Part shown: positions 2,719 through 30,265 of the stretch, one piece after another
How the letters are laid out: every line of letters starts with the position of its first letter
Numbering within the stretch: position 1 is the stretch's first letter
Source: Erysipelotrichaceae bacterium
GTDB taxonomy: Bacteria; Bacillota_I; Bacilli_A; Erysipelotrichales; Erysipelotrichaceae
Direction: 5' to 3'
Length of the DNA: 32,000 nt
Assembly (NCBI GenBank): GCA_963676105.1
Contig: OY781039.1
Coordinates: forward strand, 1,290,001-1,322,000
The notes under the pieces: generated by a model
The model's database searches: none
The model's input: only the letters and a program-made list of their open reading frames with translations
What the model was told of the DNA's origin: nothing
Made by a program: the position numbers and the translations under genes

Positions 2719-3162
2719 ATGATTCCACTAACTAGACATTCCAAGTTCAGGTTTAAATATACTTTTCTAACAGTTTTTGTCATTTTAATTATCTTTGCTT
2801 TCTCTTTACAATCAGGAGATGATTCATCCAATCAAAGTGGTTGGATTGTGCAAATCGTTGTAAACATTTTTACCTTTTTAAATATCCCTACAAGCGGTTA
2901 CCCACTATCTTTAATCGTTCGTAAAACAGCTCATTTTACAGAGTACTTTGTCTTAGGCTTAACTGTCCCAAAAACAGAAAAGGAACTTTCAGTCCCGTCT
3001 CTACATTATTTTCTTTATCTTATTCCTATCATCGATGAATCTATCCAATACTTCATGCCTGGAAGAGTCATGTCACCCATTGATATGGGAATCGATACAT
3101 GTGGTTTTACCTGTGGATATTTTATAAGTCAAAAATTAATCTCTCATAATTATTTCAAGTGA
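2719..3162 (+). CDS. VanZ-like family membrane protein
   Basis: 147-aa, four hydrophobic segments, VanZ-like RKTAHFTEYFVLG motif. Confidence 0.6.
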   Translation: MIPLTRHSKFRFKYTFLTVFVILIIFAFSLQSGDDSSNQSGWIVQIVVNIFTFLNIPTSGYPLSLIVRKTAHFTEYFVLGLTVPKTEKELSVPSLHYFLYLIPIIDESIQYFMPGRVMSPIDMGIDTCGFTCGYFISQKLISHNYFK

Positions 3163-3426
3163 AGCATCTAAACCTTCTAAAATTTTAAATAAAGTATCCA
3201 TTTTCGGGATATGTTTTTCACGTTCTAATCTAGAAATTGCTTGTTGAGATAATTCAGTTTTTTGCGCTAGTTGTTTTTGTGATAATCCTTTAAATTTCCT
3301 GATTTTAATTAATTGATCAGCTAAATCATATTGATGACTTATTTTTATATACTGCATTTTAAATTCATTATCTTTTAAATTATCATCAAGTATTTGATCA
3401 ATATTAATCTCTTTAAATGGACACAT
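3136..3426 (-). CDS. XRE-family HTH antitoxin (HigA-like)
   Basis: HTH core GLSQKQLAQKTELSQQAISRLE. ATG at 3426 lies 2 nt after the toxin stop, with AAGGAG upstream. The longer ORF-track start (3465) would overlap the toxin gene by 38 nt. Confidence 0.7.
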   Translation of the reverse strand: MCPFKEINIDQILDDNLKDNEFKMQYIKISHQYDLADQLIKIRKFKGLSQKQLAQKTELSQQAISRLEREKHIPKMDTLFKILEGLDASLEIIMRD

Positions 3427-3427
3427 A

Positions 3428-3751
3428 TTATGTAATCTCCTTTTTTCTTTTAATAGCTTTTTCAATATCTTTTATTTCTGTTTTATTCTTTTGTTTTTTA
3501 CATGCATGAAGTATATAGATTGCAGTATTTTCATAGTAAATATAGAACAATCTATTAAATCTTCTAAATTTTATTTCCCAAATCTTCTCTCTTAAATATC
3601 TCGTTTCAAGAAAATTTAAATATTCTATACCATTTGTCTCAATATTCTTAATTATCTTAAGTGCTTCAGCCTTTTCATCAACTGGCAAAGAATTAATAAA
3701 CGAAAATATCTCGTCCTTTCCACTTTTTCGACAATAAGTCAGTATTCTCAT
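3428..3751 (-). CDS. RelE/ParE-superfamily toxin, phage Gp49/HigB-like
   Basis: 107-aa. Pattern ...IWEIKFRRFNRLFYIYYENTAIYILHACKKQKNKT..IEKA is characteristic of the Gp49/DUF891 toxins that precede an XRE antitoxin. Confidence 0.7.
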   Translation of the reverse strand: MRILTYCRKSGKDEIFSFINSLPVDEKAEALKIIKNIETNGIEYLNFLETRYLREKIWEIKFRRFNRLFYIYYENTAIYILHACKKQKNKTEIKDIEKAIKRKKEIT

Positions 3752-14168: not shown

Positions 14169-14191
14169 TAAAAAAACTCCATTAGGAGTTT
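14169..14191 (-). terminator. Intrinsic terminator after the HigA-2-like gene (copy 1 of an identical 23-mer)
   Basis: The minus strand reads AAACTCC-TAAT-GGAGTTT followed by TTTTA. The plus-strand 23-mer TAAAAAAACTCCATTAGGAGTTT is identical to 15054-15076. Confidence 0.7.
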
Positions 14192-14517
14192 TAACCAATG
14201 ACTTCATGATGACTTTTTTGTTTCTTTGCTTTTTTTTCATTGTTAGGATCAATTTCTTCAAATGAATAAATCAAATTAATAATTTCAGGTTGCTTATTGA
14301 GTATATAAACAAGTTTTGCGGCCGTCCCTTTTATAGGATTATCTCCAGACTCCCACTTCTCAACTGTTTTAACACTTATCCCAAAGATACGAGCTAGTGA
14401 ACTTTGTGATACATTCAAACGTTCTCTTAGCTTTTTAACCTCGATTGGTTGAACACTATCTTCTACCGTTCTAAAAGAATAATAGGGCATTTTAAGTATA
14501 TCTTTTTTAATATTCAT
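14191..14517 (-). CDS. HTH antitoxin, HigA-2 / COG2944-like
   Basis: VKKLRERLNVSQSSLARIFGISVKTVEKWESGDNPIKGTAAKLVYIL parallels the Vibrio HigA-2 pattern (LSQSQFA...SKRTLENWEQGRR.PTGPA..LL). Its start overlaps the toxin stop by 11 nt. Confidence 0.7.
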   Translation of the reverse strand: MNIKKDILKMPYYSFRTVEDSVQPIEVKKLRERLNVSQSSLARIFGISVKTVEKWESGDNPIKGTAAKLVYILNKQPEIINLIYSFEEIDPNNEKKAKKQKSHHEVIG

Positions 14518-14950
14518 TTTTTCCTCCTTTAAAATCTAAATCAACTAGAATCTTTTTAAGAAGATTCTCTTCCAATTGTGTTAAATCACTTTTTTTATTT
14601 TTTGAGTACATATGAAATGGTAGTATGTATATTTTATTCCCTACATTCACAATAATAATTAATGCGATTACACGCAAACCATCTCTTTTAGATTGATTTC
14701 TATATGAAACATATAGTTTCTTAACGATTAGAGTATTATCGTCATTAGCCTGTAAACAACCTTTTGGATTTGTGAAATAATTAGGTTTTGATAAATCGTT
14801 CAGTACTTTTTGATATTCTTTTATACTAATATTGAATTTCTTCAGATCACGTTTTATATCAAAACCATGAATTTTAAAATAATCATAATATCTTTTAACA
14901 TTTGAACTTTCAGATAATATATCTACTACTTCTATTCGATTTATCAACAA
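14507..14950 (-). CDS. RelE-superfamily toxin, HigB-2 / COG4737-like, with a ~50-60-aa N-terminal extension
   Basis: The C-terminal half SKRDGLRVIALIII...KIYILPFHMYSKNKKSDLTQLEENLLKKIL matches the HigB-2 pattern GKRGGSRIIYY...FYLLTIYGKNEMSDL...Q...L. The only usable start is TTG at 14950. Confidence 0.55.
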   Translation of the reverse strand: MLINRIEVVDILSESSNVKRYYDYFKIHGFDIKRDLKKFNISIKEYQKVLNDLSKPNYFTNPKGCLQANDDNTLIVKKLYVSYRNQSKRDGLRVIALIIIVNVGNKIYILPFHMYSKNKKSDLTQLEENLLKKILVDLDFKGGKNEY

Positions 14951-16121: not shown

Positions 16122-17564
16122 TTAATTGTTCTTGATAAGCATTTTTTCAGCATGACCTAATAGATAAAGGAAGGCAAAGGCTGGAATTCTAATTAAGTCT
16201 TTCCCATTCTTATTATGATGGGCACCATAATCTTCTTTATTCTTAGTCACAACAAAAGAAGTTTCTGCATCATTACTTAGCAGTGATATGGCATCATCAT
16301 CAGAGATGCTTGCATGTTCTCGATATTTAACTTCAATAAGAACATTTTTAGAATTTGGGTTTTCTACGACTATATCAACTTCCTTTTGAGTTCTGTCACC
16401 TCTAAAATAACCTACTGAAGTTGATTTTTGATAATAGTATGAGACAACATGCTTATACACAGTTGTTTCAATTAATTTCCCCATTTCTATTGGGTTTGTA
16501 TATAGTGAGTCATCCATTAAAACTGCACTTAATATTGCTGGATCAGCAATGTAGATTTTTGGACTAGCTTTAAGTACTTTTTTACCACTAAGTTCGATTG
16601 GCCAACTTTGATAAATTAAATTAGCACTTTCTAAGTATTTAATATAGTTTTCAACCGTTGGTCTAGTGACACCTTGTAACTCTTTTGAAATAAGATCAAT
16701 GGATACAACCGATGAAGATACAGTACAAAGATATAAGAATATGCGTTCTAATTCAGTACTATTTCTAATGGGATATATGGATGGTAAATCACGTTTAATT
16801 ACTTTATCAACGACATCTTCTCTTAAAATTTGTTGCGTATATAAATTATTATCCGACATAACAAGTTCTGGAAAACCACCGACTTGTAAATATCGTACTA
16901 AATGGTTTTGTAGATTTGATAATTTGTTTACTATTAATGTTAATTCTTGATGTGACTTCTTAGACCATAATGAAATATTCTCGTTAAACTCTAATTGTGG
17001 TTTTTCAAGTCCTATAAACTCACAATATTCATAGAATGAAAGTGTTGGAACTTGTAAAACTGTCCATCGTCCACTTCCACTTTCTTGACTTCCTTTTATT
17101 AAGATTGGACTTGCAGACCCTGTCGCAACCACATGTGTTTCAACTCTTGTGTCATAAATTGTTTTTAACCACAGATCCCTATCTTTTGCATATTGTATTT
17201 CATCAAAGAATATATATATATCGTCATTAGGGTAAATATTCTCTTTGTAGCAATCTAAAATATCTCCAATTGTGCTCAGTTTAAGCATTGGATGATCCAT
17301 CGAGATATAGATTATCTTTTTAGCATCCACTTCCTTTAGAAGCATATCAATCATTTGAAATAGTATTGTAGTTTTCCCAACTCTACGTGTTCCAGATAAA
17401 ACAACAGCTCTTCTAATCGATTTGTTTTGCATTCGCTTAACTGCTTCATAATAAGCAAAACGCTTATAAGATTTTAAAAACATTGGATTCACTTCTTTTG
17501 TGTTCCACCATTGATTATATGAAAGCAGAACTTTTAAAAGAGACTCATTATTAATAATCGACAT
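16122..17564 (-). CDS. AAA+ ATPase with C-terminal DUF4143 / PD-(D/E)xK-like domain (COG1373-type)
   Basis: Walker A GTRRVGKTT, Walker B IFFDEIQ. The C-terminal segment KEVDIVVE...VLIEVKY fits a D...ExK nuclease-fold motif. SD GAGGT lies 5 nt upstream of the ATG. Confidence 0.75.
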   Translation of the reverse strand: MSIINNESLLKVLLSYNQWWNTKEVNPMFLKSYKRFAYYEAVKRMQNKSIRRAVVLSGTRRVGKTTILFQMIDMLLKEVDAKKIIYISMDHPMLKLSTIGDILDCYKENIYPNDDIYIFFDEIQYAKDRDLWLKTIYDTRVETHVVATGSASPILIKGSQESGSGRWTVLQVPTLSFYEYCEFIGLEKPQLEFNENISLWSKKSHQELTLIVNKLSNLQNHLVRYLQVGGFPELVMSDNNLYTQQILREDVVDKVIKRDLPSIYPIRNSTELERIFLYLCTVSSSVVSIDLISKELQGVTRPTVENYIKYLESANLIYQSWPIELSGKKVLKASPKIYIADPAILSAVLMDDSLYTNPIEMGKLIETTVYKHVVSYYYQKSTSVGYFRGDRTQKEVDIVVENPNSKNVLIEVKYREHASISDDDAISLLSNDAETSFVVTKNKEDYGAHHNKNGKDLIRIPAFAFLYLLGHAEKMLIKNN

Positions 17565-18136: not shown

Positions 18137-19405
18137 TTAGTTTTTTAAACAAGCGATGGGGACAATATATATTCCATCCTCTCTTTTGTAAGCATATTCT
18201 GTCGCTGTGATAATCATCATGAAAGCAGGTAGATTCATCGTATCTGTATCAATCTTATCTCTCAACTTTATAAGATTTTTAGCTGATTCGTCTATTCTTT
18301 CTTGATTTCCTAGTTTAATTTCTATAAGCGCGTAATTTCCATCTCTTAATTGAATAACTGCATCTGCTTCCAAGTTTGTCTTATCTCTGTAATGGTAGAG
18401 TTTACCCCCAATAGTTTCGACGTAAATATTTAAATCACGGATGCAAAGATTTTCAAAAAGAAATCCAAATGTTTTCATATCTTTAAATAATCCGCTTGGA
18501 CCAACATTTAATGCTGCAGCCGCAATAGAAGGATCTGTAAAATATCTTTTATCAGTCGTTCTTATCGCTGTCTTTGATCTTAAATTAACATTCCAAGCTG
18601 GTAGATCTTCTAGTAAAAAGATGCGTTTAAATGCTTTTATATAGTCATAAATTGTATTCTCATGTAAACGGGTGTTTTCATTTTGCGAAGAATCTTCTAA
18701 TAATGTTTTTAAAGGTATCATGCTTCCAATATTTCGTGCATAAGATTTGATTAATCTTTGTGCTATTTGCCTATCTCTATTCTTGCCATCTATCGTAATG
18801 ATCTCACTATCTATAACACCATCAAGATAATCATAGGCGTGTTTTAATGCGATTTTGGGTGCATCTTCAATAGAACTCGGCCAGCCACCTCTACAAATCA
18901 AATAAGCCATTTGTTCGACAGTGACATTAGATTTCGCCTTAATATCGCAATTGCCATTAAACAATTCACCTAGCGAAATATCTCCACTTGAATCCATCGA
19001 TTCAAACAATGACATTGTCCTCATTTTTAAATGTACAATTCGTCCAATCCCACTATGCGAATCATCATCTTTTTCTATGGAGTTCGAGCCCGTTAAGATG
19101 AATTGACCGTATTCACCTCTCTCATCGACTACAAATCTGACTGTATCCCATAAATTAGGCGCTAGTTGCCATTCATCAATCAGTCGAGGTGTTTCACCTT
19201 CAAGTAATAATTTTGGCATGATTGTTGCCAATTCCAAATTCTGTTTTCGAGTTGTTGGGTCCTGCAAATAAAGAATGCTTTTAGCATGTTGCTTAGCAGT
19301 CGTCGTTTTTCCACACCACTTTAAGCCCTCGATAATCACTGCCCCTTTAGATGCCAGCGCTTCTTCTATTTGCTTATCTGCAAGTCTTTTCTTATATGAT
19401 TTCAT
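18137..19405 (-). CDS. AAA+ ATPase with C-terminal DUF4143 / PD-(D/E)xK-like domain (second, divergent paralogue)
   Basis: Walker A GLKWCGKTT, Walker B RLIDEWQ. The C-terminal segment EADAVIQLRDGNYALIEIKLG fits D...ExK. No Shine-Dalgarno is present upstream. Confidence 0.75.
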   Translation of the reverse strand: MKSYKKRLADKQIEEALASKGAVIIEGLKWCGKTTTAKQHAKSILYLQDPTTRKQNLELATIMPKLLLEGETPRLIDEWQLAPNLWDTVRFVVDERGEYGQFILTGSNSIEKDDDSHSGIGRIVHLKMRTMSLFESMDSSGDISLGELFNGNCDIKAKSNVTVEQMAYLICRGGWPSSIEDAPKIALKHAYDYLDGVIDSEIITIDGKNRDRQIAQRLIKSYARNIGSMIPLKTLLEDSSQNENTRLHENTIYDYIKAFKRIFLLEDLPAWNVNLRSKTAIRTTDKRYFTDPSIAAAALNVGPSGLFKDMKTFGFLFENLCIRDLNIYVETIGGKLYHYRDKTNLEADAVIQLRDGNYALIEIKLGNQERIDESAKNLIKLRDKIDTDTMNLPAFMMIITATEYAYKREDGIYIVPIACLKN

Positions 19406-20779: not shown

Positions 20780-21403
20780 CTATGCTAATAATTTATTCAT
20801 GGGTTCATCAAAGTTATGAACCATAAACTGTATCGTATTACCCATTAGTAATACGGCAATAAGTGTTCCAAGTCCAATCCCAATAATTGAACCTGTAAAT
20901 ACTAATGATGTCACAACAGTTAGAGTTACAAAAGACGCATCGAATATTATCTTAACTCTACCAAATTTAACTTTGAATACATCACTCATGGTTTTAACAG
21001 CACCATCAACTGGATTTAAAATTAAGTCACTCTTAACCGCTAAGAAGACACCTGATGCGATAATAAGTATCGCTGTTAATAAAGTGATTAATCCTGTAAC
21101 TAATGTCGTCGCATGAATGGTTAAATTATTGTTGATAAAATCAAGTACCCATCCAAATACAATTGAGAATGGAATTTGTAAGATAATCTTCATATCTGCC
21201 TTACGTACAAGCACTAGTTGAACAAGTACTAAAGCTAAATACATGATCATTGATGCATTACCTAAAGATATTCCTGTTATTTGATTAATCGCAAATGGAA
21301 AGGAAGCAACTGCCGCAACCCCTAATCCACTACGTGTATTTAATACGATACCAAATGCTAATATCAGCATTCCTACTACATATACAATAATTCTCTTTGT
21401 CAT
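20780..21403 (-). CDS. YczE-like integral membrane protein
   Basis: 207-aa, about six TM segments. N-terminus MTKRIIVYVVGMLILAFGIVLNTRSGLGV is typical of YczE/DUF6198-type proteins. Confidence 0.6.
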   Translation of the reverse strand: MTKRIIVYVVGMLILAFGIVLNTRSGLGVAAVASFPFAINQITGISLGNASMIMYLALVLVQLVLVRKADMKIILQIPFSIVFGWVLDFINNNLTIHATTLVTGLITLLTAILIIASGVFLAVKSDLILNPVDGAVKTMSDVFKVKFGRVKIIFDASFVTLTVVTSLVFTGSIIGIGLGTLIAVLLMGNTIQFMVHNFDEPMNKLLA

Positions 21404-21474
21404 AAGTCACCTACATAAATATAATGCTTAGTCAGTTTAACACTATCCAGAACAATATACCAAATATTTAATGC

Positions 21475-21535
21475 ATTATTGACATATGCCAATAATATGC
21501 TAAGATGTAATCGATAAATGACATATGTCAATAAT
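21475..21535 (+). promoter_or_regulatory. Promoter of the DUF5320 operon (TTGACA-16-TAAGAT) flanked by two related 22-bp palindromic sites
   Basis: Site 1 is ATTATTGACATATGCCAATAAT (21475-21496, overlaps the -35). Site 2 is ATAAATGACATATGTCAATAAT (21514-21535, between the -10 and the RBS). Confidence 0.55.
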
Positions 21536-21551
21536 AAAAAGGAGATAAAAT

Positions 21552-21812
21552 ATGCCAAATAGAAATGGAACAGGACCAATGGGTCAAGGATCGAAAACAG
21601 GAAGAGGCTTAGGTCAATGTAATGTTGAATCCGCAAATATCAATCGAGCTGGATTTGGACGTGGCCAAGGACGATTAAGAGCTTGCCAAAATGGTAGGGG
21701 CTTTGCTCGTTCATACAACTTAGACAAGCCAAGAACTTTATCATTAAACGAAGAAAAACAGTTATTGGAAAAAAGATTAGACATGATTAATCAACAACTA
21801 GATAACAACTAA
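21552..21812 (+). CDS. DUF5320-family small protein (Gly/Arg-rich N-terminus, coiled-coil C-terminus)
   Basis: MPNRNGTGPMGQGSKTGRGLGQC is the hallmark DUF5320 N-terminus. The stop overlaps the next ATG (TAATG). Confidence 0.7.
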   Translation: MPNRNGTGPMGQGSKTGRGLGQCNVESANINRAGFGRGQGRLRACQNGRGFARSYNLDKPRTLSLNEEKQLLEKRLDMINQQLDNN

Positions 21813-22206
21813 TGCCTAGACCATTTAAATATCGAAAGGTACGATCCTTACCTGGGATTAGCCTTTTTGGACCACTAGGTCAACATGATCCTACACGTGA
21901 AATAGTAATTATGAGTATCGAAGAATTCGAGTCTATTCGTCTAATTGATCTAGAAGGATTAACCAAGAAGAGTGCGCCAGTCGTATGGAGGTCGCTCGCG
22001 GGACAGTGCAAAGCATTTATAGTCAAGCACGTTTTAAAATCGCAGAAAGTATTGTGAATGGTAAAAAACTCTCTATTGAAGGAGGTAATTATCAAATTCA
22101 TAACACAGATCATACTACGTTTGAAAACCCACGTCGTCATAAAGGTCGCGGGCAAGGAAAAGGAAGAGGTAGAAAACATGATTTTAGCCATACCGGTGAA
22201 GAATAA
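21812..22206 (+). pseudogene. DUF134/UPF0251-family predicted DNA-binding protein, interrupted by a 1-nt frameshift near 21962-21965
   Basis: Frame A encodes MPRPFKYRKV...EEFESIRLIDLEGLT. Shifting back one nucleotide continues QEECASRMEVARGTVQSIYSQARFKIAESIVNGKKLSIEGGNY.... Together these reconstruct a normal ~131-aa DUF134 protein. ACCAAG looks like ACCCAAG minus one C. Confidence 0.65.
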
Positions 22207-22537
22207 TTCAAAAGATACTTTAATTAATAAATCATTTGGACGAGCACCTTATTTTTGTATTATCGATTTAGAAAAAAATGCAAAACACTTTATTCCAAAT
22301 AATGCAGCTAACGATAATGGTGGAGTTGGGGTTAAAGCTTCTCAAATTTTAGTTGATCAAAATGTAGAAGCCGTTATTCTTCCACAATGCGGAGAAAATG
22401 CAGCTAAAGTATTTGAAGCAGCAAAGATTAAAATTTATAAAACGATTAATGAATCAATTGAAGATAATATTGAAGCGTATCACAAACAAGAATTATCATT
22501 GTTAGATGATATTCACGCTGGTCATCATGGAGCATAA
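22178..22537 (+). CDS. NifB/NifX-family (dinitrogenase Fe-Mo cofactor biosynthesis domain) protein
   Basis: MILAIPVKNNS...SFGRAPYFCIIDL...GGVGVKASQILVDQNVEAVI..QCGENAAKVFEAAKIKIY fits the NifX/NifB C-terminal fold pattern. ATG at 22178 has AGGAAGAGG upstream. The ORF-track N-terminal extension is the overlapping DUF134 tail read in another frame. Confidence 0.7.
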   Translation: MILAIPVKNNSKDTLINKSFGRAPYFCIIDLEKNAKHFIPNNAANDNGGVGVKASQILVDQNVEAVILPQCGENAAKVFEAAKIKIYKTINESIEDNIEAYHKQELSLLDDIHAGHHGA

Positions 22538-22540
22538 TCT

Positions 22541-23395
22541 ATGAACATTGCAGTCCTGAGTGGTAAAGGTGGCACAGGTAAAACATTGGTTTCAGTTAAT
22601 TTAGCTGCAGCGAGTGATAAGGCCAATTATATTGATTGTGATGTAGAAGAGCCAAATGGTGCTCTTTTTTTCAAACCGAGCAATATTAAGCAGACTGATA
22701 CCCTAGTAAAAATCCCTCAAATTAATCATGATTTATGCGCGTCATGTCGCAAGTGTGTCGATTTTTGTCGTTTTAATGCTATAGCCTTCGTAGGTAATAA
22801 ACCTTTAGTATTTGAAGAGATTTGTCACTCTTGTGGTGGTTGTTCACTTGTATGTCCACAAAAGGCTATTACAGAAAAAGATAAAGTGATTGGTCACATT
22901 GAAGAAGGTTTCAGTGACAATGTTTTTATTAATAGTGGTTTGCTCAACATTGGACAAGAATCAGGTGTACCGATTATTAATCAACTCTTATCTAAGATAG
23001 ATCATCATAATTTAAACATTATTGACTGTCCTCCTGGTAGTTCATGTTCAGTGATTGAAAGTATTAAAGATGCTGATTATTGTGTACTTGTTGCTGAACC
23101 AAGTATCTTTGGTGCGCAAAATTTAGAGATGGTTTATGACCTTGTTAAGTTATTTAATAAAAAACATGCTGTTGTATTAAATAAAACAATGGACATTGAA
23201 AATCCATCAGAGAACTTTTGTATTGAAAAAGATATTCCAATTCTTGAAAAAATACCCTTTGATCAAAGCTTAGGGAAACTTAATTCAGATGGTTTAATCG
23301 CTGTAAGAGAAAATAGTCACTACAAAAACTTGTTCTCATCATTGTTGAAAAAAGTACTAAAGGAGGCATCTAATGAAACAGTTACTCATCCTTAG
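22541..23395 (+). CDS. MinD/ParA-class P-loop ATPase with an inserted 2x[4Fe-4S] ferredoxin domain
   Basis: Deviant Walker A SGKGGTGKT, CDVEEPN, and two CxxCxxCxxxC clusters (CASCRKCVDFC, CHSCGGCSLVC). Confidence 0.8.
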   Translation: MNIAVLSGKGGTGKTLVSVNLAAASDKANYIDCDVEEPNGALFFKPSNIKQTDTLVKIPQINHDLCASCRKCVDFCRFNAIAFVGNKPLVFEEICHSCGGCSLVCPQKAITEKDKVIGHIEEGFSDNVFINSGLLNIGQESGVPIINQLLSKIDHHNLNIIDCPPGSSCSVIESIKDADYCVLVAEPSIFGAQNLEMVYDLVKLFNKKHAVVLNKTMDIENPSENFCIEKDIPILEKIPFDQSLGKLNSDGLIAVRENSHYKNLFSSLLKKVLKEASNETVTHP

Positions 23396-24224
23396 TGGTA
23401 AAGGTGGTACAGGTAAAACTACCGTCGCAAGTGCTTTTATTCGCTTACTAGATGCGAAAGCTTTTGCGGATTGTGATGTTGATGCACCAAACTTGCATCT
23501 CGTTTCTCATTTCGATCATCCTCCTCAAGTCAAAGATTATTATGGTTTAGATAAAGCACATATTAATTCTGAAACTTGCATATCATGTGGTCAATGTGTT
23601 AGTCATTGTCGATTTGATGCGATTGAAGTTAGCGATATTTATAAAGTCAATCCATATTTATGTGAAGGATGTGCTGTTTGTGAAATGGTATGTCCAACAA
23701 AAGCCATCGAAATGAAAGAAGCTGTGGATGGTCATATTGATTTATATAGAAACCATTCAACTTTCTCAACAGCTCAACTTAAAACAGGTAGTGGTAACTC
23801 TGGGTTATTAGTTACTGAAGTGAAGAAACAATTAGAAGAAAACACATCTGCAGATATTGCGATTATCGATGGTTCCCCAGGTATTGGATGCCCTGTCATC
23901 GCCTCATTAAATGCCATTGATTTGACACTAATCGTAACTGAACCATCACTCTCTGGAATCAGTGATATGAAGCGTATTATCACAACCGCTAAACGATTTG
24001 AGACAAAAATCGCAGTATGTGTAAATAAATACGATAATAATCTTCAAAACACAAAAGCCATTGAAACTTTCTGTAAAGAGAATGACTTAAGTTTTACAGG
24101 ACGTATTCCTTTTGATAAAAAAGCTATACAAAGTATAAATACATCTTCTACTATTGTAGACATAGACTGTATATCAGGCACTGCCGTTAAAGATGTCTTT
24201 CAGAAAACATTAGCGCTCTTATAA
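23373..24224 (+). CDS. Second MinD/ParA-class P-loop ATPase with a ferredoxin domain (paralogue)
   Basis: SGKGGTGKTT, CDVDAPNLH, CISCGQCVSHC, CEGCAVCEMVC. Overlaps the previous gene by 23 nt. Confidence 0.8.
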   Translation: MKQLLILSGKGGTGKTTVASAFIRLLDAKAFADCDVDAPNLHLVSHFDHPPQVKDYYGLDKAHINSETCISCGQCVSHCRFDAIEVSDIYKVNPYLCEGCAVCEMVCPTKAIEMKEAVDGHIDLYRNHSTFSTAQLKTGSGNSGLLVTEVKKQLEENTSADIAIIDGSPGIGCPVIASLNAIDLTLIVTEPSLSGISDMKRIITTAKRFETKIAVCVNKYDNNLQNTKAIETFCKENDLSFTGRIPFDKKAIQSINTSSTIVDIDCISGTAVKDVFQKTLALL

Positions 24225-24262
24225 AAATAGCTCGATTCACTTATGAATTGAGCTATTTTTTT
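24223..24262. terminator. Bidirectional intrinsic terminator between convergent genes
   Basis: AAAAATAGCTCGATTCA-CTTA-TGAATTGAGCTATTTTT, a 17-bp stem with one G-U pair. The A-run and T-run flanks serve both strands. Confidence 0.7.
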
Positions 24263-25259
24263 AATCAATAATTAAATTCGAATCATTATTTGTTTTAACT
24301 TTATGCTCTAACCAATTGTATTGCGAAGATAATTTACCAAACCAGGCTGCACTTTGCACTTGAAGAATAAATGCTACCGTTATGATTAAGGCAGTATCAG
24401 CACCAAATGATGTCATTGCTAGACCCAAAGCAATAGATAGATTACGCATAACTGAACCATACACTAATGCATAGCCATCGTAACGGTTAAAGAATAATCT
24501 AACGACAATTGTACTTACCAAAAAATTAATGACATAGAAAATAAATGGTATCAATATTATCTTTAATAGTAAATCAGGACGTGATGTAATGGCATTCGCC
24601 TTCATGCTTATACTAGAAAAGATAATAAACAACATTGGCCAAACACTTAATGCTGGGAAAATGGGTTTAATACGTGTCTTATACTCCTCTTCACTCACAA
24701 ACTTAAGTATAACTTGATAAGTAATGCCTCCTAAAATCATTGGAAGAATAACAATCTGAGCAATCGTTAAGAATGTTTCTAATAAATCAATTTCAACCAA
24801 TGTCCCCAAAGCTACAGATAAATAAACAGGTGCTAAAACAGATCCAACGATAAGACTTAACGCTGTGATTTTAATCGCTGCTGCCACATTACCTTTATTC
24901 AACATCGTCCACGATATTGTCATACCACTTGTTGGAAATAGGGCAATCATAAAGATACCTGCAAACAATTCAGGACTGTCACTTAGTAGTGCTTTCCCAA
25001 AAAAATAAGCAAATAATGGAATAAATATAAAGTTGAGTATACTTGTATAAATCACAACTTTAATATGTGATAAATCTACTGCTTCTTTGATTTTAAAACC
25101 GACCATAGTTGGATAGATCATAAAGAAAGTAAATATAAGAATATAATTCTTTAAAAAACTAAAGTTCATGTTTAGTCCTGCAACAAAACCAATGACCAAT
25201 ATAATTGGAATAACAATAACTAGATTTTTTGATGGGTAATAAAAAATTTTCTTAAGCAT
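24261..25259 (-). CDS. ACR3/SBF-like (BART superfamily) transporter, cysteine-free
   Basis: 332-aa, about ten TM segments. FFMIYPTMVGFKIKE resembles the ACR3 MMYPP..K motif. The whole protein contains no Cys. Confidence 0.6.
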   Translation of the reverse strand: MLKKIFYYPSKNLVIVIPIILVIGFVAGLNMNFSFLKNYILIFTFFMIYPTMVGFKIKEAVDLSHIKVVIYTSILNFIFIPLFAYFFGKALLSDSPELFAGIFMIALFPTSGMTISWTMLNKGNVAAAIKITALSLIVGSVLAPVYLSVALGTLVEIDLLETFLTIAQIVILPMILGGITYQVILKFVSEEEYKTRIKPIFPALSVWPMLFIIFSSISMKANAITSRPDLLLKIILIPFIFYVINFLVSTIVVRLFFNRYDGYALVYGSVMRNLSIALGLAMTSFGADTALIITVAFILQVQSAAWFGKLSSQYNWLEHKVKTNNDSNLIID

Positions 25260-25272
25260 TTTTCCTCCATAA

Positions 25273-25292
25273 TTATGAACATATGTTCATAA
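25273..25292. promoter_or_regulatory. Perfect 20-bp palindrome TTATGAACATATGTTCATAA between the promoter and RBS of the ACR3-like gene
   Basis: All 10 positions pair. It lies 14-33 nt upstream of the ATG at 25259. Confidence 0.6.
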
Positions 25293-25304
25293 CACAATGG
25301 CTTA

Positions 25305-25332
25305 ATTATAGAAGAACAGATAAAAAAGTCAA
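25305..25332 (-). promoter_or_regulatory. Near-consensus promoter TTGACT-16-TATAAT of the ACR3-like gene
   Basis: On the minus strand, TTGACT is at 25327-25332 and TATAAT at 25305-25310. Confidence 0.55.
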
Positions 25333-25380: not shown

Positions 25381-25414
25381 ATTAAAAATCCACGGTTTTA
25401 ATACCGTGGATTTT
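25381..25414 (-). terminator. Intrinsic terminator after the Abi gene
   Basis: AAAATCCACGGT-N6-ACCGTGGATTTT, a 12-bp stem. The T-run follows on the minus strand. Confidence 0.65.
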
Positions 25415-25490
25415 CACCCAGCATACACTGGATATCTCGTAGCTATAATATATCACCATGGACAATTATTTTCAATCGATTTGAGAAATA

Positions 25491-26474
25491 TTAGTATTTA
25501 TTGTAATTAATATTTTTCTTGTTTTTGGTAGCCAGATACTCTAAGTCATTTAAATCTCTTATACCCATATTTGAACGCACATAATCAAATGATGTAATAT
25601 TTAATTCATTTTGCAAATTAATTAGGTTTGACCTCAACTGAAGAACTAATTTTTCATAATCATTTGAATTCATAAAGTACTTCAAAGAAACTAACAAATC
25701 TACTAATTGCTGTTGTGGATTGTATTTAAAATAACGTCTATCTCCTAAAATATATTCTTTGAATGGTTGTTTGAATCGAGGAGATTTGGATTTAAAAAAA
25801 ATTACTCTCTCATTATGTGCGCACGAGTTTCTAACTTTTCTAATTAGATGCAACATTGATAGTAAAAGTGAGTAATAATTTTTACCTCTTTTATCTTTTA
25901 TATTATATAACTCACACAATGCATCCAATAATTGTGGTTTCGATATCTCTACTACACTTATTAAATCCCCAAATGTTATTAATTTTGTAAATATCCACGC
26001 TGGTACTCTTCCATACTTTTTTGAATAATGAAAATTATACTCATTTGTTGACTTATCAATTGTATGAAAACACTTTGAAATTACTCTAATAATATCTTGA
26101 GTATCCTTATTGGAATTATAAGCTTGAACATCATACCATTCAACCTCTTTAGGATTAATGAAATCTAATTTATACCCAACCAAATTTCTAATTTCCTCTT
26201 CTATTCTTGTAATAACTTGCAAAAGTATAATTCTCAAATCATCATCAAATAGTTTTAAACTTACAAAAGATTCGATAGTAATACCACCAATATAAATATG
26301 ATCATTATTTAAATCTTTTCCTTGTATAAATGGCTCTTTGTATGCATTTATTAAATTAAAATAACCATACTTGATAAGAAATTCTTTATGCTTACTGCCT
26401 TCACATCTTATTTTTTTCTTATCTCTAAGATACTTCATTTGTGTATTGAAAGTTTTAAATGGTTTTTCATTCAT
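25491..26474 (-). CDS. Abi_2 (AbiD/AbiF-like) abortive-infection family protein
   Basis: 327-aa. Conserved KVRNSCAHNERV motif (RNxxAHxxR) and the overall AbiD/F-like helical pattern. Confidence 0.7.
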   Translation of the reverse strand: MNEKPFKTFNTQMKYLRDKKKIRCEGSKHKEFLIKYGYFNLINAYKEPFIQGKDLNNDHIYIGGITIESFVSLKLFDDDLRIILLQVITRIEEEIRNLVGYKLDFINPKEVEWYDVQAYNSNKDTQDIIRVISKCFHTIDKSTNEYNFHYSKKYGRVPAWIFTKLITFGDLISVVEISKPQLLDALCELYNIKDKRGKNYYSLLLSMLHLIRKVRNSCAHNERVIFFKSKSPRFKQPFKEYILGDRRYFKYNPQQQLVDLLVSLKYFMNSNDYEKLVLQLRSNLINLQNELNITSFDYVRSNMGIRDLNDLEYLATKNKKNINYNKY

Positions 26475-26524
26475 ACTGCGCCACCCTTATATATTATTTA
26501 TATACACTAAATTATGAAAGTCCG

Positions 26525-26555
26525 TAAAAAAGAATGGCACTTTCGCACCATTCTT
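26525..26555 (-). terminator. Intrinsic terminator after the lipoprotein gene relic
   Basis: The minus strand reads AAGAATGGTGC-GAAA-GTGCCATTCTT followed by TTTTAC. Confidence 0.6.
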
Positions 26556-26568
26556 CATTTACTATTAA

Positions 26569-27222
26569 TTATTCCCAAAGATTAGCATTACCATAACGTG
26601 CATCAAGTTCTGCTGAGAACCAACGACCATTCATAACGTTAGAGATAACAAATTCTTTTAATCCATCAGGAATTGTAGTATCTGCATCCATCGCATCCAT
26701 GATTGCTTCATAAGATGTAGTATCATCCATTAATTCAACAATCGCAGATGTATCATCTGAATCAAATACCATTGATACAGTATTATCTACAGTGAATGCA
26801 TCCCAAGTAGCAAGTTCACCACCATTTGGATCACCTGTATCATTCAGAAGTGTTCCAAAAACAGATAAATCTATTTCATCTTTTTCAATCAAATGACTTA
26901 AGTCCTATAACTCATTATTATCAATTAATGTTGAATAAAAGCCACCCGACAACAACATCACATCGAAATACTCATCATATGTCTGTGATGGAAAGTTAAC
27001 AATCTCAACTTCTACATGAGGATATCTATTCTGAAAACTCTTAACAACTTCATTTAATATAGTTTCTTCTTCCCCTGAATCTACCTTTATATGATCATAG
27101 ACATCAAAGTCATAGTTCTTCTCAAAGTTATCAGTATTAATAACATTTTGACTACATCCACTCAATAACAAAAAACTTAGGATGACTGATATCTTGATTG
27201 TTCTATGACCTATCAATTTCAT
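26569..27222 (-). pseudogene. Lipoprotein with a solute-binding-protein-like N-terminus, split by one in-frame TAG (26905-26907)
   Basis: Lipobox LLLSGC. KSFQNRYPHVEVEIVNFPSQTYDEYFDVMLLSGG resembles the N-terminus of ABC substrate-binding proteins. The two ORF-track pieces are in the same frame: ...DNNEL*DLSHLIEKDE.... The total of ~217 codons is too short for a full binding protein. Confidence 0.5.
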
Positions 27223-27264: not shown

Positions 27265-28452
27265 TTATCTACTTTTATCGAAATTGACATCCAACCATAA
27301 TTGCAATTCATTACGATTTTTTATGCCATTTTTTATTAATATCTCAATAATATCTTTCCCTGAAACTATAATGATTGGTAACTTTTCGTTGACTACTTCT
27401 TTATATGCATCAGCATTAACATATGAAGTGGTAACCATAATACCAAATTCTCTGTGTTGGATTCTTGAGACTAGTCTTGACATAATCTTTACATCAACAC
27501 TTGAAGAAGTTTTAGGATGAAAATATTTTGCTTCAACAACAAATGTTTTCTCAATATTATTCTTTGAATTTCCAATTCTATAGGTTCCTATTGCATCTTT
27601 ACCATGATCCTTAAAATAACTAGTACCTTCTATATCTATAATATTTTGATCCATGAACAAAACAATTTGAATTGCGCATTTTTCAAATGCGTACCCATCA
27701 TTAAAATATTCAGCTAATAAAAGCAACATTTTGCCTTCTTCAGTATTAAAATCTGGAATTTGTTCTATTTTTGATCTATGAAGAATTGGATTCTTTTCTG
27801 TAATTAGGGGAGAATATTTCCCTTTATTAATCCATTCTAACCAAACTTTAGGTGCATGTTCACTTGTATTCGCATGTCCAATTAAAACATCGTTCAACCA
27901 TTCACGAGGTATTTGTGGGATATCTAAAATTGTAAAAATAGATTTGTAATTTTGATATCGCCCTTCTGAGTTTTGTGCCCAAACAATCTCTAAAGTTTCA
28001 TTAATGTTAATGTTTTTAGATCCTAAAACTGCTAATCCTAAGAACATAATATCTCGACCGGCATACTTTTTAAAAATAAAAACTGGTGGTATATTTTCTC
28101 GTTTACCATTCATTAGTTTTTCAAATGAATCTGATAAAAAAGTGTTTCCTTTAAATTTCGTGTTATGTATAGGGTTCCCAGCAGTTCTATTGTCTCCCCA
28201 ATAAGTAAAAGTTCCTAAGGTTCTGTCAATTTCATCGCGCCATTCTAGCTCTTCACCACTTGTATAAATGCATATATAAGCAAAACCAGGTTTTTTAACA
28301 TTATATTTTTTCTTCCGAAAGCCTCCTGAATTTTGAACTCCAAGAAGTTTTGTCAAAACTTCACCACTTATATTCTTTGAATCATTTGAACAATATACTG
28401 CATCAACAATCAAATCTGTATCAGTAAGTTTGCTAAAATCTACTCTATGCAT
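27265..28452 (-). CDS. Restriction endonuclease: C-terminal Mrr-like PD-(D/E)xK domain plus an N-terminal DNA-reader domain (possibly SRA/PUA-like)
   Basis: The C-terminal segment GKDAIGTYRIG...FVVEAKYF fits D...EAK, followed by GIMVTTS (Mrr_cat-like). ATG at 28452 has GGGGGAA 5 nt upstream, so it is preferred over 28482. The gene is divergent from a C5-MTase gene. Confidence 0.65.
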   Translation of the reverse strand: MHRVDFSKLTDTDLIVDAVYCSNDSKNISGEVLTKLLGVQNSGGFRKKKYNVKKPGFAYICIYTSGEELEWRDEIDRTLGTFTYWGDNRTAGNPIHNTKFKGNTFLSDSFEKLMNGKRENIPPVFIFKKYAGRDIMFLGLAVLGSKNININETLEIVWAQNSEGRYQNYKSIFTILDIPQIPREWLNDVLIGHANTSEHAPKVWLEWINKGKYSPLITEKNPILHRSKIEQIPDFNTEEGKMLLLLAEYFNDGYAFEKCAIQIVLFMDQNIIDIEGTSYFKDHGKDAIGTYRIGNSKNNIEKTFVVEAKYFHPKTSSSVDVKIMSRLVSRIQHREFGIMVTTSYVNADAYKEVVNEKLPIIIVSGKDIIEILIKNGIKNRNELQLWLDVNFDKSR

Positions 28453-28546
28453 TGTAGTTCCCCCAATTTTATAAGTAAGCATGTTTCATTTTTTAATAAA
28501 ATATTTATATACAAGATATAACTGTATTTTTTATTGATAATTAAAG

Positions 28547-28566
28547 TTTATCAAGATCTTGATAAA
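28547..28566. promoter_or_regulatory. Perfect 20-bp palindrome TTTATCAAGATCTTGATAAA in the divergent R/M promoter region
   Basis: All 10 positions pair. The right half supplies the TTGATA -35 box of the MTase promoter. An extra TTGATAA half-site is at 28534-28540. Confidence 0.6.
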
Positions 28567-28587
28567 TTAAACAAATAATTCTAATAT
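28559..28587 (+). promoter_or_regulatory. MTase promoter TTGATA-17-TAATAT, placed for a leaderless or near-leaderless transcript
   Basis: The -10 ends 8 nt before the A of the ATG at 28595. No Shine-Dalgarno lies between them. Confidence 0.4.
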
Positions 28588-28594
28588 TGATATT

Positions 28595-30265
28595 ATGAAA
28601 AATAAAAAATATACTGTTATAGATTTTTTTTGTGGTGCCGGAGGATTTTCAACAGGGTTTGACTTAAATGGTTTTGAGGTAATTATGGGTATTGATAACT
28701 GGGCGCCTGCCATCAAAACTCATAACGCAAATTTTAATCTAGAAGATACACCAATAGATGTACTTAAATTTAATGACATCAACAAAATATTTGAATTACC
28801 AGATACGGATATTATTATCGGTAGTCCCCCATGTGTTGTTTTTTCAACATCAAATAAGGGGGGGAATTCAAATAAGCTAGATGGTTTAAAACTTATTAAG
28901 ACATATTTAAAAGTAATAGCAGTAAAGAAATATAAAAATAATTCAAAATTAAAAGCTTGGCTTATGGAAAACGTTCCCAATGTGGGTAAATATATGAACG
29001 ACACATATACTTTTAGTGATTTGGATTTAACTGAATGGGCAATTTCTAGTGGATATAATCCAGAAATGGTAGCTCTAGACCTTAAGAATAAACAACATAT
29101 TGTTAATTCCTACAATTATGGTTCTGTTCAGAAGCGTTTAAGATATATTTGTGGTGAGATAATTGAATCAAATAAATTTCCAGAATTACATCCAATTGTA
29201 AATAAAAAAACAGTAAACTCGATTTTTAAAGATTTTCCAAAACCAAATGAAAAAAGTTTGACAAAATTCGAAAATATAGTTGATCCTAATTACACAAGTA
29301 TAAAAATTTCAAATTCATCGCTACACGATCATTTTTATGATACTGGTGTTTATAAAGTTGAATGGAAAAAAGCAATGGAAGCTAAACTTAATCACCCTTA
29401 CATGGGTAAAATGTCTTTCCCAGAGAATCTAGACAAAGAAGCTAGAACAATTATGGCAACCATGTCAGCGAGTAGTAGAGAATCCATATTAATAGAATCT
29501 GAAATTAGCAGAATTGGTGATGGACAATATAGATTATTAACTGTAAGAGAAGCCGCAACAATTATGGGTTTTCCAATTAATTATCAATTTTATGGAAATG
29601 AATCTTCAAAATGGAGACTTGTTGGTAATGCTGTAGTTGTACAACTTTCATATACTTTAGCAAAATCAATAAAGAGTAATTTAGGTTTGAATTTTCAAGG
29701 ATCTAAGATGAAAAAACTAGATTTTTCTGACTTCATATTTTTTGATAATTTTGAATTAAAGGATTTTAATAATCCACCTAAAAGAAATCCAAATAGTATA
29801 TTTCGTCTCCATCCAATAAAAGCAGGAAATATGACCGTAGAATTAACGAATAGATTATTAGTTAAATATCAAGACAAAACAATTTCAAAAAAATGGAAGA
29901 TAGTTATTAATGTTGGAACTGGGAAAAAAGCCAGACATATACTTATACATGAGAATCATAAGCTTGAAGCAGAGGAATTACTATTAAAACATTCACCTAT
30001 TTTTTTGGAAGAATTAAACAATGACAAAGTTATTCACAAATATACTGATTCACATTTTAACAATCAAAACAGAGAATATGGCTATATATCTGAATCAAGA
30101 ACACATCCATATAATCTTGTATACAAAATCAAAAATCATATTGAGAATCAGACAGACAATACAATTTATCTTAATCCAGAATTAGAATTATTCAAAATTA
30201 AAGCAACGATGCCACTTCATCAATTGATGGCTATTTATGCACTGGGTAAACTTTTGTACAGTTAA
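28595..30265 (+). CDS. DNA (cytosine-5)-methyltransferase with a ~200-aa C-terminal extension of unknown function
   Basis: Motif I DFFCGAGGFSTGF, IV GSPPCVVFS, VI MENVPN, VIII GSVQKRLRY, IX RLLTVREAATIMGFP, X VGNAVVVQL. Residues ~360-556 lie beyond motif X. Confidence 0.85.
   Translation: MKNKKYTVIDFFCGAGGFSTGFDLNGFEVIMGIDNWAPAIKTHNANFNLEDTPIDVLKFNDINKIFELPDTDIIIGSPPCVVFSTSNKGGNSNKLDGLKLIKTYLKVIAVKKYKNNSKLKAWLMENVPNVGKYMNDTYTFSDLDLTEWAISSGYNPEMVALDLKNKQHIVNSYNYGSVQKRLRYICGEIIESNKFPELHPIVNKKTVNSIFKDFPKPNEKSLTKFENIVDPNYTSIKISNSSLHDHFYDTGVYKVEWKKAMEAKLNHPYMGKMSFPENLDKEARTIMATMSASSRESILIESEISRIGDGQYRLLTVREAATIMGFPINYQFYGNESSKWRLVGNAVVVQLSYTLAKSIKSNLGLNFQGSKMKKLDFSDFIFFDNFELKDFNNPPKRNPNSIFRLHPIKAGNMTVELTNRLLVKYQDKTISKKWKIVINVGTGKKARHILIHENHKLEAEELLLKHSPIFLEELNNDKVIHKYTDSHFNNQNREYGYISESRTHPYNLVYKIKNHIENQTDNTIYLNPELELFKIKATMPLHQLMAIYALGKLLYS

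Follow-up and report, generated by a model that had tools for sequence, protein, structure and literature searches.

Three palindromes at a DUF134 operon and a nearby SBF transporter gene as candidate operators of a DUF134 repressor

Which protein reads three related palindromes that stand at two promoters of a single bacterial locus, and what do the genes behind these promoters have in common? The locus lies within 32,000 nucleotides of DNA from Erysipelotrichaceae bacterium (GenBank assembly GCA_963676105.1, contig OY781039.1, positions 1,290,001 to 1,322,000 of the forward strand; hereafter the window). Two of the dyads (O1 and O2) belong to the promoter of an operon coding for DUF5320, DUF134, a NifX-like protein and two MinD/ParA-type ATPases, and the third (O3) is located in the leader of a convergent gene for a transporter of the SBF family. 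For two decades the DUF134 family (UPF0251, COG1342) has been labelled only as "predicted DNA-binding protein", and in the literature that we searched, which included few subscription journals, no paper came to light in which a site, a regulon or a signal is attributed to it, or in which the motif is described in such a context. An earlier note on this DNA proposed that the DUF134 product represses a metal/metalloid-handling regulon that includes both promoters. Comparison with homologous loci leads us to estimate a probability of about 0.8 that the three dyads are operators of a DUF134 repressor, which would act at its own operon and at the SBF transporter gene and would be released by a cofactor-type signal. 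The comparative evidence lends strong support to a cognate repressor and to the membership of the transporter. The label "metal/metalloid handling" proved too specific: the core of the putative regulon is an orange-protein (ORP)-like Fe-S/cofactor cluster together with redox proteins, and "Fe-S/redox/cofactor regulon" describes the evidence better.

A conserved operator at DUF134 genes

The DUF134 gene of the window contains a frameshift, which we repaired in silico before collecting and aligning homologs of its product. From reference genomes we then assembled 80 DUF134 loci (808 kb). These loci contain 42 copies of the dodecamer TGACATATGTCA, most of which lie no more than 500 bp upstream of DUF134; many are arranged as pairs at a distance of 38-39 bp. 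The operator was defined as a 22-bp inverted repeat that approximates GTTATTGACAT in its left and ATGTCAATAAC in its right half (short form TTGACATATGTCAA; half-site TTGACAT, key half-site letters ACAT/ATGT). A symmetrised position weight matrix (PWM) with a site threshold of ≥16 identifies 138 sites in the DUF134 loci, compared to 1 after shuffling. As a control we used 454 kb of unrelated anaerobe loci that had been fetched for another purpose (80 metagenome loci of SBF homologs); these contain no site at or above the threshold. The exact seed core is missing from 57 of the 138 sites, which did not serve as seeds for the matrix, so this result is not circular.

A site lies within -900 to +600 of the DUF134 start in 69 of the 80 loci, and four of the remaining 11 have no upstream DNA. 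These loci come from Bacillota, Synergistaceae, Bacteroidales, and Poseidonibacter and Leptospira metagenome-assembled genomes, and the motif spans six phyla. Desulfovibrio litoralis also carries tandem dyads, with PWM scores of 24.5 and 27.7. The scan of orthologous loci suggested in the earlier note therefore finds the motif preserved next to DUF134, as expected if the dyads represent one regulatory motif that tracks DUF134 genes.

The matrix that we applied to the window was built from other genomes. All three dyads exceed the operator threshold (Table 1), and the next-best site in the 32 kb, at 12.6, falls below each of them. The pattern TTATNNACATATGTNNATAA, with up to three mismatches allowed, matches the window six times versus 1.31 expected, a count that none of 100 shuffles reached, and the matches with the fewest mismatches (0, 1 and 2) are the three dyads. 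Each dyad was found exactly where it had been placed before, and the distance between O1 and O2 was recomputed as the same 39 bp from centre to centre. The one inaccuracy of the earlier description concerns the core ACATATGT, which was said to be common to all three sites: that of O1 reads ACATATGC.

Alignment of 64 tandem pairs reveals a conserved promoter template. The spacing is 38 bp in 24 of these pairs and 39 bp in another 18. The order of elements hardly varies: the left half of the distal dyad contributes TTGACA as the -35 element, a near-perfect (G)TATAAT stands in the 16-17 bp that separate the two dyads, and the transcription start lies under the proximal dyad, which is followed by AGGAGG and by the ATG of either DUF5320 (MPRRDG...) or DUF134 (MPRPRK...). 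The operon promoter of the window fits this template with a weaker -10 element (TAAGAT). O1 lies over the -35 element, in the same placement as the distal dyads of 60 or more orthologous promoters. O2, a 22-mer that is identical in the relative L174, begins 8 nt past the -10 element and stops 5 nt short of the AGGAG ribosome-binding site. O3 is a single dyad, as in the Fusibacter orthologs, and it begins 13 nt past the -10 element of the transporter promoter and stops 4 nt short of GGAGGA. Our promoter scan thus agrees with the original placement of O1 and O2 and with that of O3 between a near-consensus promoter (11 of 12 matches) and the ribosome-binding site of the transporter gene. Judged by position, operators on the -35 element and over +1 would form a classic layout for repression by promoter occlusion.

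DUF134 as the candidate repressor

Dyads are present at DUF134 loci with no neighbouring DUF5320 or orp-type gene (among them L035, L038, L041, L049 and L051) and, again without DUF5320, at L166-L169, L171 and L175. Since they also occur at operons that combine DUF134 with an SBF gene (see below), the motif follows DUF134 and not its neighbours. DUF134 is the sole helix-turn-helix (HTH) protein that is consistently present at dyad loci. The remaining HTH genes of the window, each at a distance of more than 7 kb, code for toxin-antitoxin-type antitoxins and an OmpR-type response regulator, and the window contains no arsR, lexA, fur or SOS genes. This pattern of co-occurrence makes DUF134 by far the best candidate for the dyad-binding protein.

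The fold of DUF134 is consistent with this role. Both fragments of the window gene match PF02001, one at profile positions 6-57 (27.3 bits) and the other at 60-97 (28.2 bits), where the cut-off is 27. The repaired protein shares 59-65% identity with the closest intact members, and P0241, the intact protein of a close relative, is called PF02001 as well. DUF134 also gives weak Pfam matches to Sigma70_r4/r4_2. A sequence search of the PDB returned no DUF134 structure. In the AlphaFold model, the core (residues 30-93) has predicted local distance difference test (pLDDT) scores of 88-95, about 90, and its three-helix HTH superposes on region 4 of sigma factors. The best Foldseek matches are region 4 of SigR, SigB, SigL and SigE (root-mean-square deviation 0.6-1.0 Å, probability 1.0), with E-values of merely 0.03-0.3 for an aligned stretch of ~47 residues. 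The HTH residues are nearly invariant across the aligned family, paralleling the near-invariant operator, and the proteins begin with an invariant basic arm, MPRPRKWRK.

The likeness to sigma region 4, with SigR, SigE and SigL among the best structural matches, extends to the DNA, since the half-site TTGACA is the sigma70 -35 consensus. Because this is the hexamer that region-4 modules read, the comparison suggests that DUF134 is a repressor that mimics sigma region 4. Unlike sigma factors, DUF134 lacks regions 1-3, and for this reason it cannot be one. Its presumed sites are also found downstream of the -10 element, and they are inverted repeats, which implies that the protein binds as a dimer.

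A precedent for such a protein, characterised by experiment, is EnfR (TON_1525) from Thermococcus onnurineus, a dimeric repressor of the Tfx family with a sigma-r4-type HTH that binds a pseudo-palindrome over the promoter, aided by an N-terminal loop that adds to DNA binding (PMC10570040; PDB 8HNO/8HNP). Like EnfR, DUF134 is a small stand-alone protein with a sigma70 region-4-type HTH, and its basic N-terminal arm can be set beside the N-terminal loop of EnfR. EnfR appears at ranks 3, 8 and 46 among the structural neighbours of the DUF134 model. The two proteins have no detectable sequence kinship, however, and EnfR is absent from the PDB sequence matches at E ≤ 1.

Comparative genomics and the fold point to the following mechanism, including the sign of regulation and the effector. 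DUF134 would be a small dimeric regulator with a sigma region-4-type HTH as its DNA-binding core. One dimer would occupy the -35 element (O1) and a second would bind 38-39 bp downstream over the start (O2), leaving the -10 element between them, so that RNA polymerase is occluded. The repressed operon (DUF5320-DUF134-NifX-like-MinD/Fer4-MinD/Fer4) would include the gene of the repressor and hence be autoregulated, while the lone operator O3, just downstream of its -10 element, would repress the neighbouring SBF transporter gene. Release would probably follow from an Fe-S, redox or metal-cofactor signal that canonical members may read by their Cys-rich N- and C-terminal tails and/or through the NifX-like partner.

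Canonical DUF134 proteins carry an N-terminal VCCLP motif and a C-terminal CxxC-rich cluster of cysteines. AlphaFold models these Cys-rich tails at pLDDT < 50, as expected for cofactor-dependent segments. The family comprises ~3,400 clusters at 50% identity (E ≤ 1e-10), and about a quarter of its top 149 representatives (34) are at least 200 aa long. When ten long members among the representatives P0252-P0341 were tested, nine turned out to be fusions of DUF134 with Nitro_FeMo-Co. By the logic of such Rosetta-stone fusions, the NifX-like protein that is encoded right after DUF134 is its probable sensing partner. Another representative, P0366, has DUF134 fused to an AP_endonuc_2 TIM-barrel domain.

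The DUF134 gene of the window is indeed frameshifted, as the earlier note had stated: it is split into two frames (21812-22057 and 21985-22206). Alignment to L173, a metagenomic relative that is 97% identical, shows the lesion to be a 1-nt deletion that removed one C from a CCC run at ~21963-21964. L173 encodes an intact protein of 131 aa (P0241) that differs from our in-silico repair at 4 residues. The two genes differ by 7 synonymous and 4 non-synonymous changes, and the corresponding ratio of substitution rates (dN/dS ~0.16) indicates purifying selection. A third sequence of this lineage (L174, 2x coverage) contains a TAT to TAA change at the invariant Tyr70, so that, of the three sequences at hand, two contain inactivating lesions of separate origin. 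All three (window, L173 and L174) have VRSLP in place of VCCLP and no C-terminal cysteine, and the invariant Cys55 of the HTH alone remains. In contrast, all 119 other homologs retain at least one C-terminal cysteine, and most of them at least three; none is Cys-less like the window lineage, which this alignment sets apart within the family as an atypical branch devoid of these cysteines. The frameshift is either a recent strain-level lesion or a homopolymer assembly error. If the lesion is real, the operon and transporter promoters should both be derepressed, that is, constitutively on, in this strain.

A more elaborate model is also conceivable, which we put forward tentatively and consider doubtful. 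DUF134 and its NifX-like partner might form a two-part sensor, so far overlooked and widespread in anaerobes, in which the mimic of sigma region 4 occupies the -35 element and the start site of its targets and is released when the partner or its own Cys tails are loaded with a cofactor of the Fe-S or Mo/Cu-S type. Under its control would stand the ORP complex, Fe-S flavoproteins and a dedicated new clade of SBF transporters, with a cofactor precursor such as a Mo, W, S or Se thio- or oxyanion as substrate, not arsenite. The Cys-less and repeatedly inactivated copy described above would then be a "locked repressor" that is being lost.

The transporter, the wider regulon and alternative readings

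The transporter gene had been described as ACR3-like. The protein shares the SBF/ACR3 superfamily fold (PF01758) with the ACR3 family, but it scores 57.9 bits against the ACR3 equivalog TIGR00832, for which the cut-off is 282.8. On this score it is no bona fide ACR3 arsenite pump, and "ACR3-like" expresses superfamily resemblance, not a functional assignment. Several database records name it "arsenic resistance protein", an annotation that is misleading for a clade of SBF transporters and that we correct here. Unlike ArsR-controlled ars operons, the locus has no arsR, arsC or arsA nearby, and the conserved partners of the transporter are DUF134 and orp-like genes.

Other genomes support the proposal that the operon and the transporter belong to one circuit. 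O3 is kept in a 97%-identical relative (L161). Fusibacter bizertensis and a related species have a single dyad (PWM 17.8-21.8) 62 bp upstream of the transporter ortholog, and F. bizertensis also contains a dyad-bearing DUF134 gene (L019). In four lineages (L166, L167, L168/169 and L175) the SBF ortholog directly follows DUF134, with tandem dyads in front of the pair. The proximal operator of L166 and L167 is TTGAACATATGTTCAA, which has the half-site variant of O3, and in L168 this variant makes up one half of the proximal operator. The O3-type variant TGAACATATGTTCA also occurs at the orp-type operons L011, L035, L042 and L058.

We surveyed gene contexts within the SBF transporter clade (L162-L165, L170 and L176). 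In Fusibacter the gene neighbours a ZnuABC/CobW/ArsP_1 cluster. L176 contains a molybdate/tungstate-type ABC (ATP-binding cassette) system, an HTH_17-PBP_like regulator and YeeE/TusA/Se_S_carrier genes, and Carboxydocella (L170) contains YeeE/TusA/DUF302 genes. These contexts hint at transport of an ion or a cofactor precursor, not of arsenic. In D. litoralis, a split ArsP_1-family permease gene (L171, 1176-1916) is divergent from the DUF134 operon and shares its dyad-bearing intergenic region. This permease may be another DUF134-controlled transporter.

Other dyad-bearing genes in the fetched loci code for ~520-aa proteins with a Glu_synthase domain (four loci), C_GCAxxG_C_C redox proteins, an Mrp/NUBPL ATPase, a TehA/SLAC1 channel (divergent from a Fur-family gene), an ECF S-component, a DUF169 protein, and flavodoxin-type and flavodiiron-type proteins. 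With these data, the DUF134 family gains a 22-bp operator, a conserved promoter architecture and a candidate regulon of ORP-like Fe-S ATPases, NifX-like proteins, Glu_synthase-domain Fe-S flavoproteins, C_GCAxxG_C_C proteins, Mrp/NUBPL and several transporters.

The known regulator of ORP-type genes is OrpR from Desulfovibrio vulgaris Hildenborough, an activator of the sigma54 enhancer-binding type (PAS-AAA+-HTH) with GGGCGYRTTTTGCGCCC, upstream of -24/-12 promoters, as its binding site (PMC8359166, PMC3897727, PMC6345978). OrpR senses redox by way of a [4Fe-4S] cluster with Cys ligands, and its reported distribution is limited to delta-proteobacteria (PMC8359166); descriptions of the orp gene cluster of Desulfovibrio are available (PMC8359166, PMC6345978). 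The window operon unites the ORP-type domain set, a Nitro_FeMo-Co protein and MinD-type ATPases with inserted 2x[4Fe-4S] ferredoxin domains. The resemblance is at the level of domains, since matches to the MrpORP equivalog of NCBIfam are partial and reach 28-42 bits against a cut-off of 450. Like the orp system, the DUF134 system combines a Nitro_FeMo-Co protein with MinD/Mrp-type Fe-S ATPases, palindromic sites at the cluster promoters and a regulator gene inside the cluster, and canonical DUF134 proteins have conserved cysteines in common with OrpR. Unlike OrpR, the ~125-aa DUF134 protein has a sigma-r4 HTH and an unrelated motif, and its operators overlap the -35 and +1 positions of sigma70-type promoters, which implies repression. 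DUF134-type dyads are in use even in a Desulfovibrio, D. litoralis. Since OrpR is reportedly confined to delta-proteobacteria, DUF134 makes a good candidate regulator for the ORP-type clusters of other bacteria. It could represent the functional counterpart of OrpR outside this group and provides a proposal for what controls these clusters where OrpR is absent.

Several observations weigh against DUF134 as the repressor that acts at the three dyads. The operators are assigned to this protein by co-occurrence, and five DUF134 loci with enough upstream DNA contain no site (L017, L026, L039, L048 and L050). The SBF homologs with 40-59% identity in the 80 metagenome loci, as well as one with 65% (L081), have no dyad ≥16, so membership of the transporter appears to be specific to the closest clade. 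The DUF134 gene of the window is frameshifted and its product lacks the candidate signal-sensing cysteines, yet the operators are intact. This combination implies that the lesion is very recent, that it is an assembly error, or that another protein binds. Finally, O3 fits a Gram-positive LexA box and resembles the 12-2-12 operators of ArsR/SmtB proteins. LexA boxes of Bacillus read CGAACATATGTTCG, and ArsR/SmtB operators are inverted repeats of the TGAA..TTCA type. O3 includes GAACATATGTTC at 25277-25288, a perfect GAAC-N4-GTTC and the sole such match in the window. O3 could accordingly be a LexA (SOS, "Cheo") box or an ArsR/SmtB-type operator for a regulator encoded elsewhere and resemble the operon dyads by chance, a reading to which the loose annotation of the transporter family as "arsenic resistance protein" would lend itself. 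We consider this improbable. The match is not significant, since at least one GAAC-N4-GTTC arises in 21 of 100 shuffles. The TTAT...ATAA flanks of O3 match the DUF134 consensus, as its PWM score reflects, the gene downstream encodes a transporter and not an SOS function, and the window has neither lexA nor arsR. In four lineages the orthologous transporter gene shares an operon with DUF134, and because the O3 variant recurs as the proximal member of tandem operators at these operons and at orp-type operons, the LexA/ArsR reading loses most of its force. On these comparative grounds we dropped it.

Another possibility is that a different product of the conserved cluster (DUF5320, for example) or an unlinked regulator that accompanies DUF134 binds the dyads, and that DUF134 does something else, for instance as a sigma- or anti-sigma-like accessory. 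The first gene to follow the dyads is frequently DUF5320 (in 34-45 of the 80 orthologous operons), tightly linked genes are not separable by co-occurrence alone, and in the window it is DUF134 that is disrupted while its operators persist. Still, we give this idea little credence. The many dyad-bearing DUF134 loci that lack DUF5320 led us to reject this protein as the binder; by Pfam it has no recognisable DNA-binding domain, whereas a confident HTH fold is predicted for DUF134. Even less probable, in our view, is the interpretation of the palindromes as promoter elements (back-to-back -35 hexamers for divergent transcription) or as hairpins that act in the 5'-untranslated region of the RNA. 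It is true that the distal dyad supplies the -35 consensus TTGACA and that the leader containing O3 (25257-25304, minus strand) folds into a predicted hairpin of -12.3 kcal/mol (z = -3.2), with pairs that reach the first Gs of the Shine-Dalgarno sequence; this structure could exert a secondary effect on translation. But the proximal dyads sit downstream of the -10 element without a -10 partner of their own, the distal dyads are not transcribed, and the hairpin of O2 amounts to merely -2.9 kcal/mol (z = -1.1). Furthermore, the 22 bp are conserved at the level of sequence and asymmetric half-sites (e.g. ATGCCAA) are tolerated, unlike the compensatory changes of an RNA stem. The positions of the dyads and the folding of O2 led us to drop both the hairpin and the pure promoter-element interpretation.

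The locus and its neighbours

The coordinates of the promoters, operators and genes are listed in Table 1. Pfam agrees with the earlier gene calls for DUF5320, DUF134, the NifX-like protein, the two MinD/ferredoxin ATPases and the SBF transporter. For DUF5320 and for COG1433/COG1149 the literature search returned nothing on function.

Table 1. Features of the DUF134 operon and the convergent transporter gene (window coordinates)
Feature	Position	Strand	Details
DUF6198/YczE-like membrane protein	20780-21403	-	Pfam/NCBIfam
O1, distal operator	21475-21496	.	ATTATTGACATATGCCAATAAT; PWM 23.5; promoter scan
Operon -35, TTGACA	21479-21484	+	left half of O1; promoter scan
Operon -10, TAAGAT	21501-21506	+	between O1 and O2; 16 nt from -35; TATAAT here in orthologs
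O2, proximal operator	21514-21535	.	ATAAATGACATATGTCAATAAT; PWM 25.7; covers roughly +1 to +22
DUF5320, 86 aa, first operon gene	21552-21812	+	PF17253, 9.6e-17
DUF134/UPF0251, candidate repressor, repaired product 131 aa	21812-22206	+	PF02001 on both fragments
NifX-like/orange-protein-like (Nitro_FeMo-Co)	22178-22537	+	PF02579, 1.5e-22; overlaps DUF134 end
MinD/ParA-type P-loop ATPase with inserted 2x[4Fe-4S] ferredoxin domain, Orp3/Orp4-like	22541-23395	+	Pfam, NCBIfam
Second MinD/ParA-type ATPase with inserted 2x[4Fe-4S] ferredoxin domain	23373-24224	+	Pfam, NCBIfam
SBF-family transporter, 332 aa, convergent with operon	24261-25259	-	PF01758, 1.7e-27
O3, operator in transporter leader	25273-25292	.	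perfect 20-mer TTATGAACATATGTTCATAA; PWM 19.6; TGAACAT half-site variant
Transporter promoter, TTGACT (25332-27), 16 nt, TATAAT (25310-05)	25305-25332	-	11/12 consensus matches

On the minus strand, the right half of O1 reads TTGGCA, and -10-like hexamers follow 17-18 nt further (window 21463-21503). The divergent DUF6198/YczE-like gene could therefore share O1, an arrangement that is not conserved, because the divergent neighbours vary among genomes.

Beyond the transporter promoter, a block with an Abi_2 (abortive-infection-like) gene (25382-26525) is missing from the relative L161, in which the promoter region abuts sequence matching 26526-26835 of the window. This difference marks a recent insertion or deletion beside the O3 promoter. 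Two adjoining ORFs of ~105 aa without a Pfam match (26569-27222, minus strand) look like the remnants of one disrupted gene; the upstream ORF has a lipoprotein-like signal peptide, and part of the region they occupy is conserved in L161 (94% identity). Next to these ORFs, a gene for an AspBHI-like/Mrr-type restriction endonuclease (27265-28482, minus strand) is divergent from that of a C-5 cytosine DNA methyltransferase (28595-30265), and together with the Abi_2 gene this pair (27265-30265) forms a small defence island. Elsewhere, the window contains two paralogous AAA_14/DUF4143 ATPase genes (16122-17564 and 18137-19405) and two toxin-antitoxin-like pairs, one of the Gp49/HTH_3 type (3136-3751) and one that consists of an MqsA-like HTH_3 protein with an unannotated partner (14191-14950).

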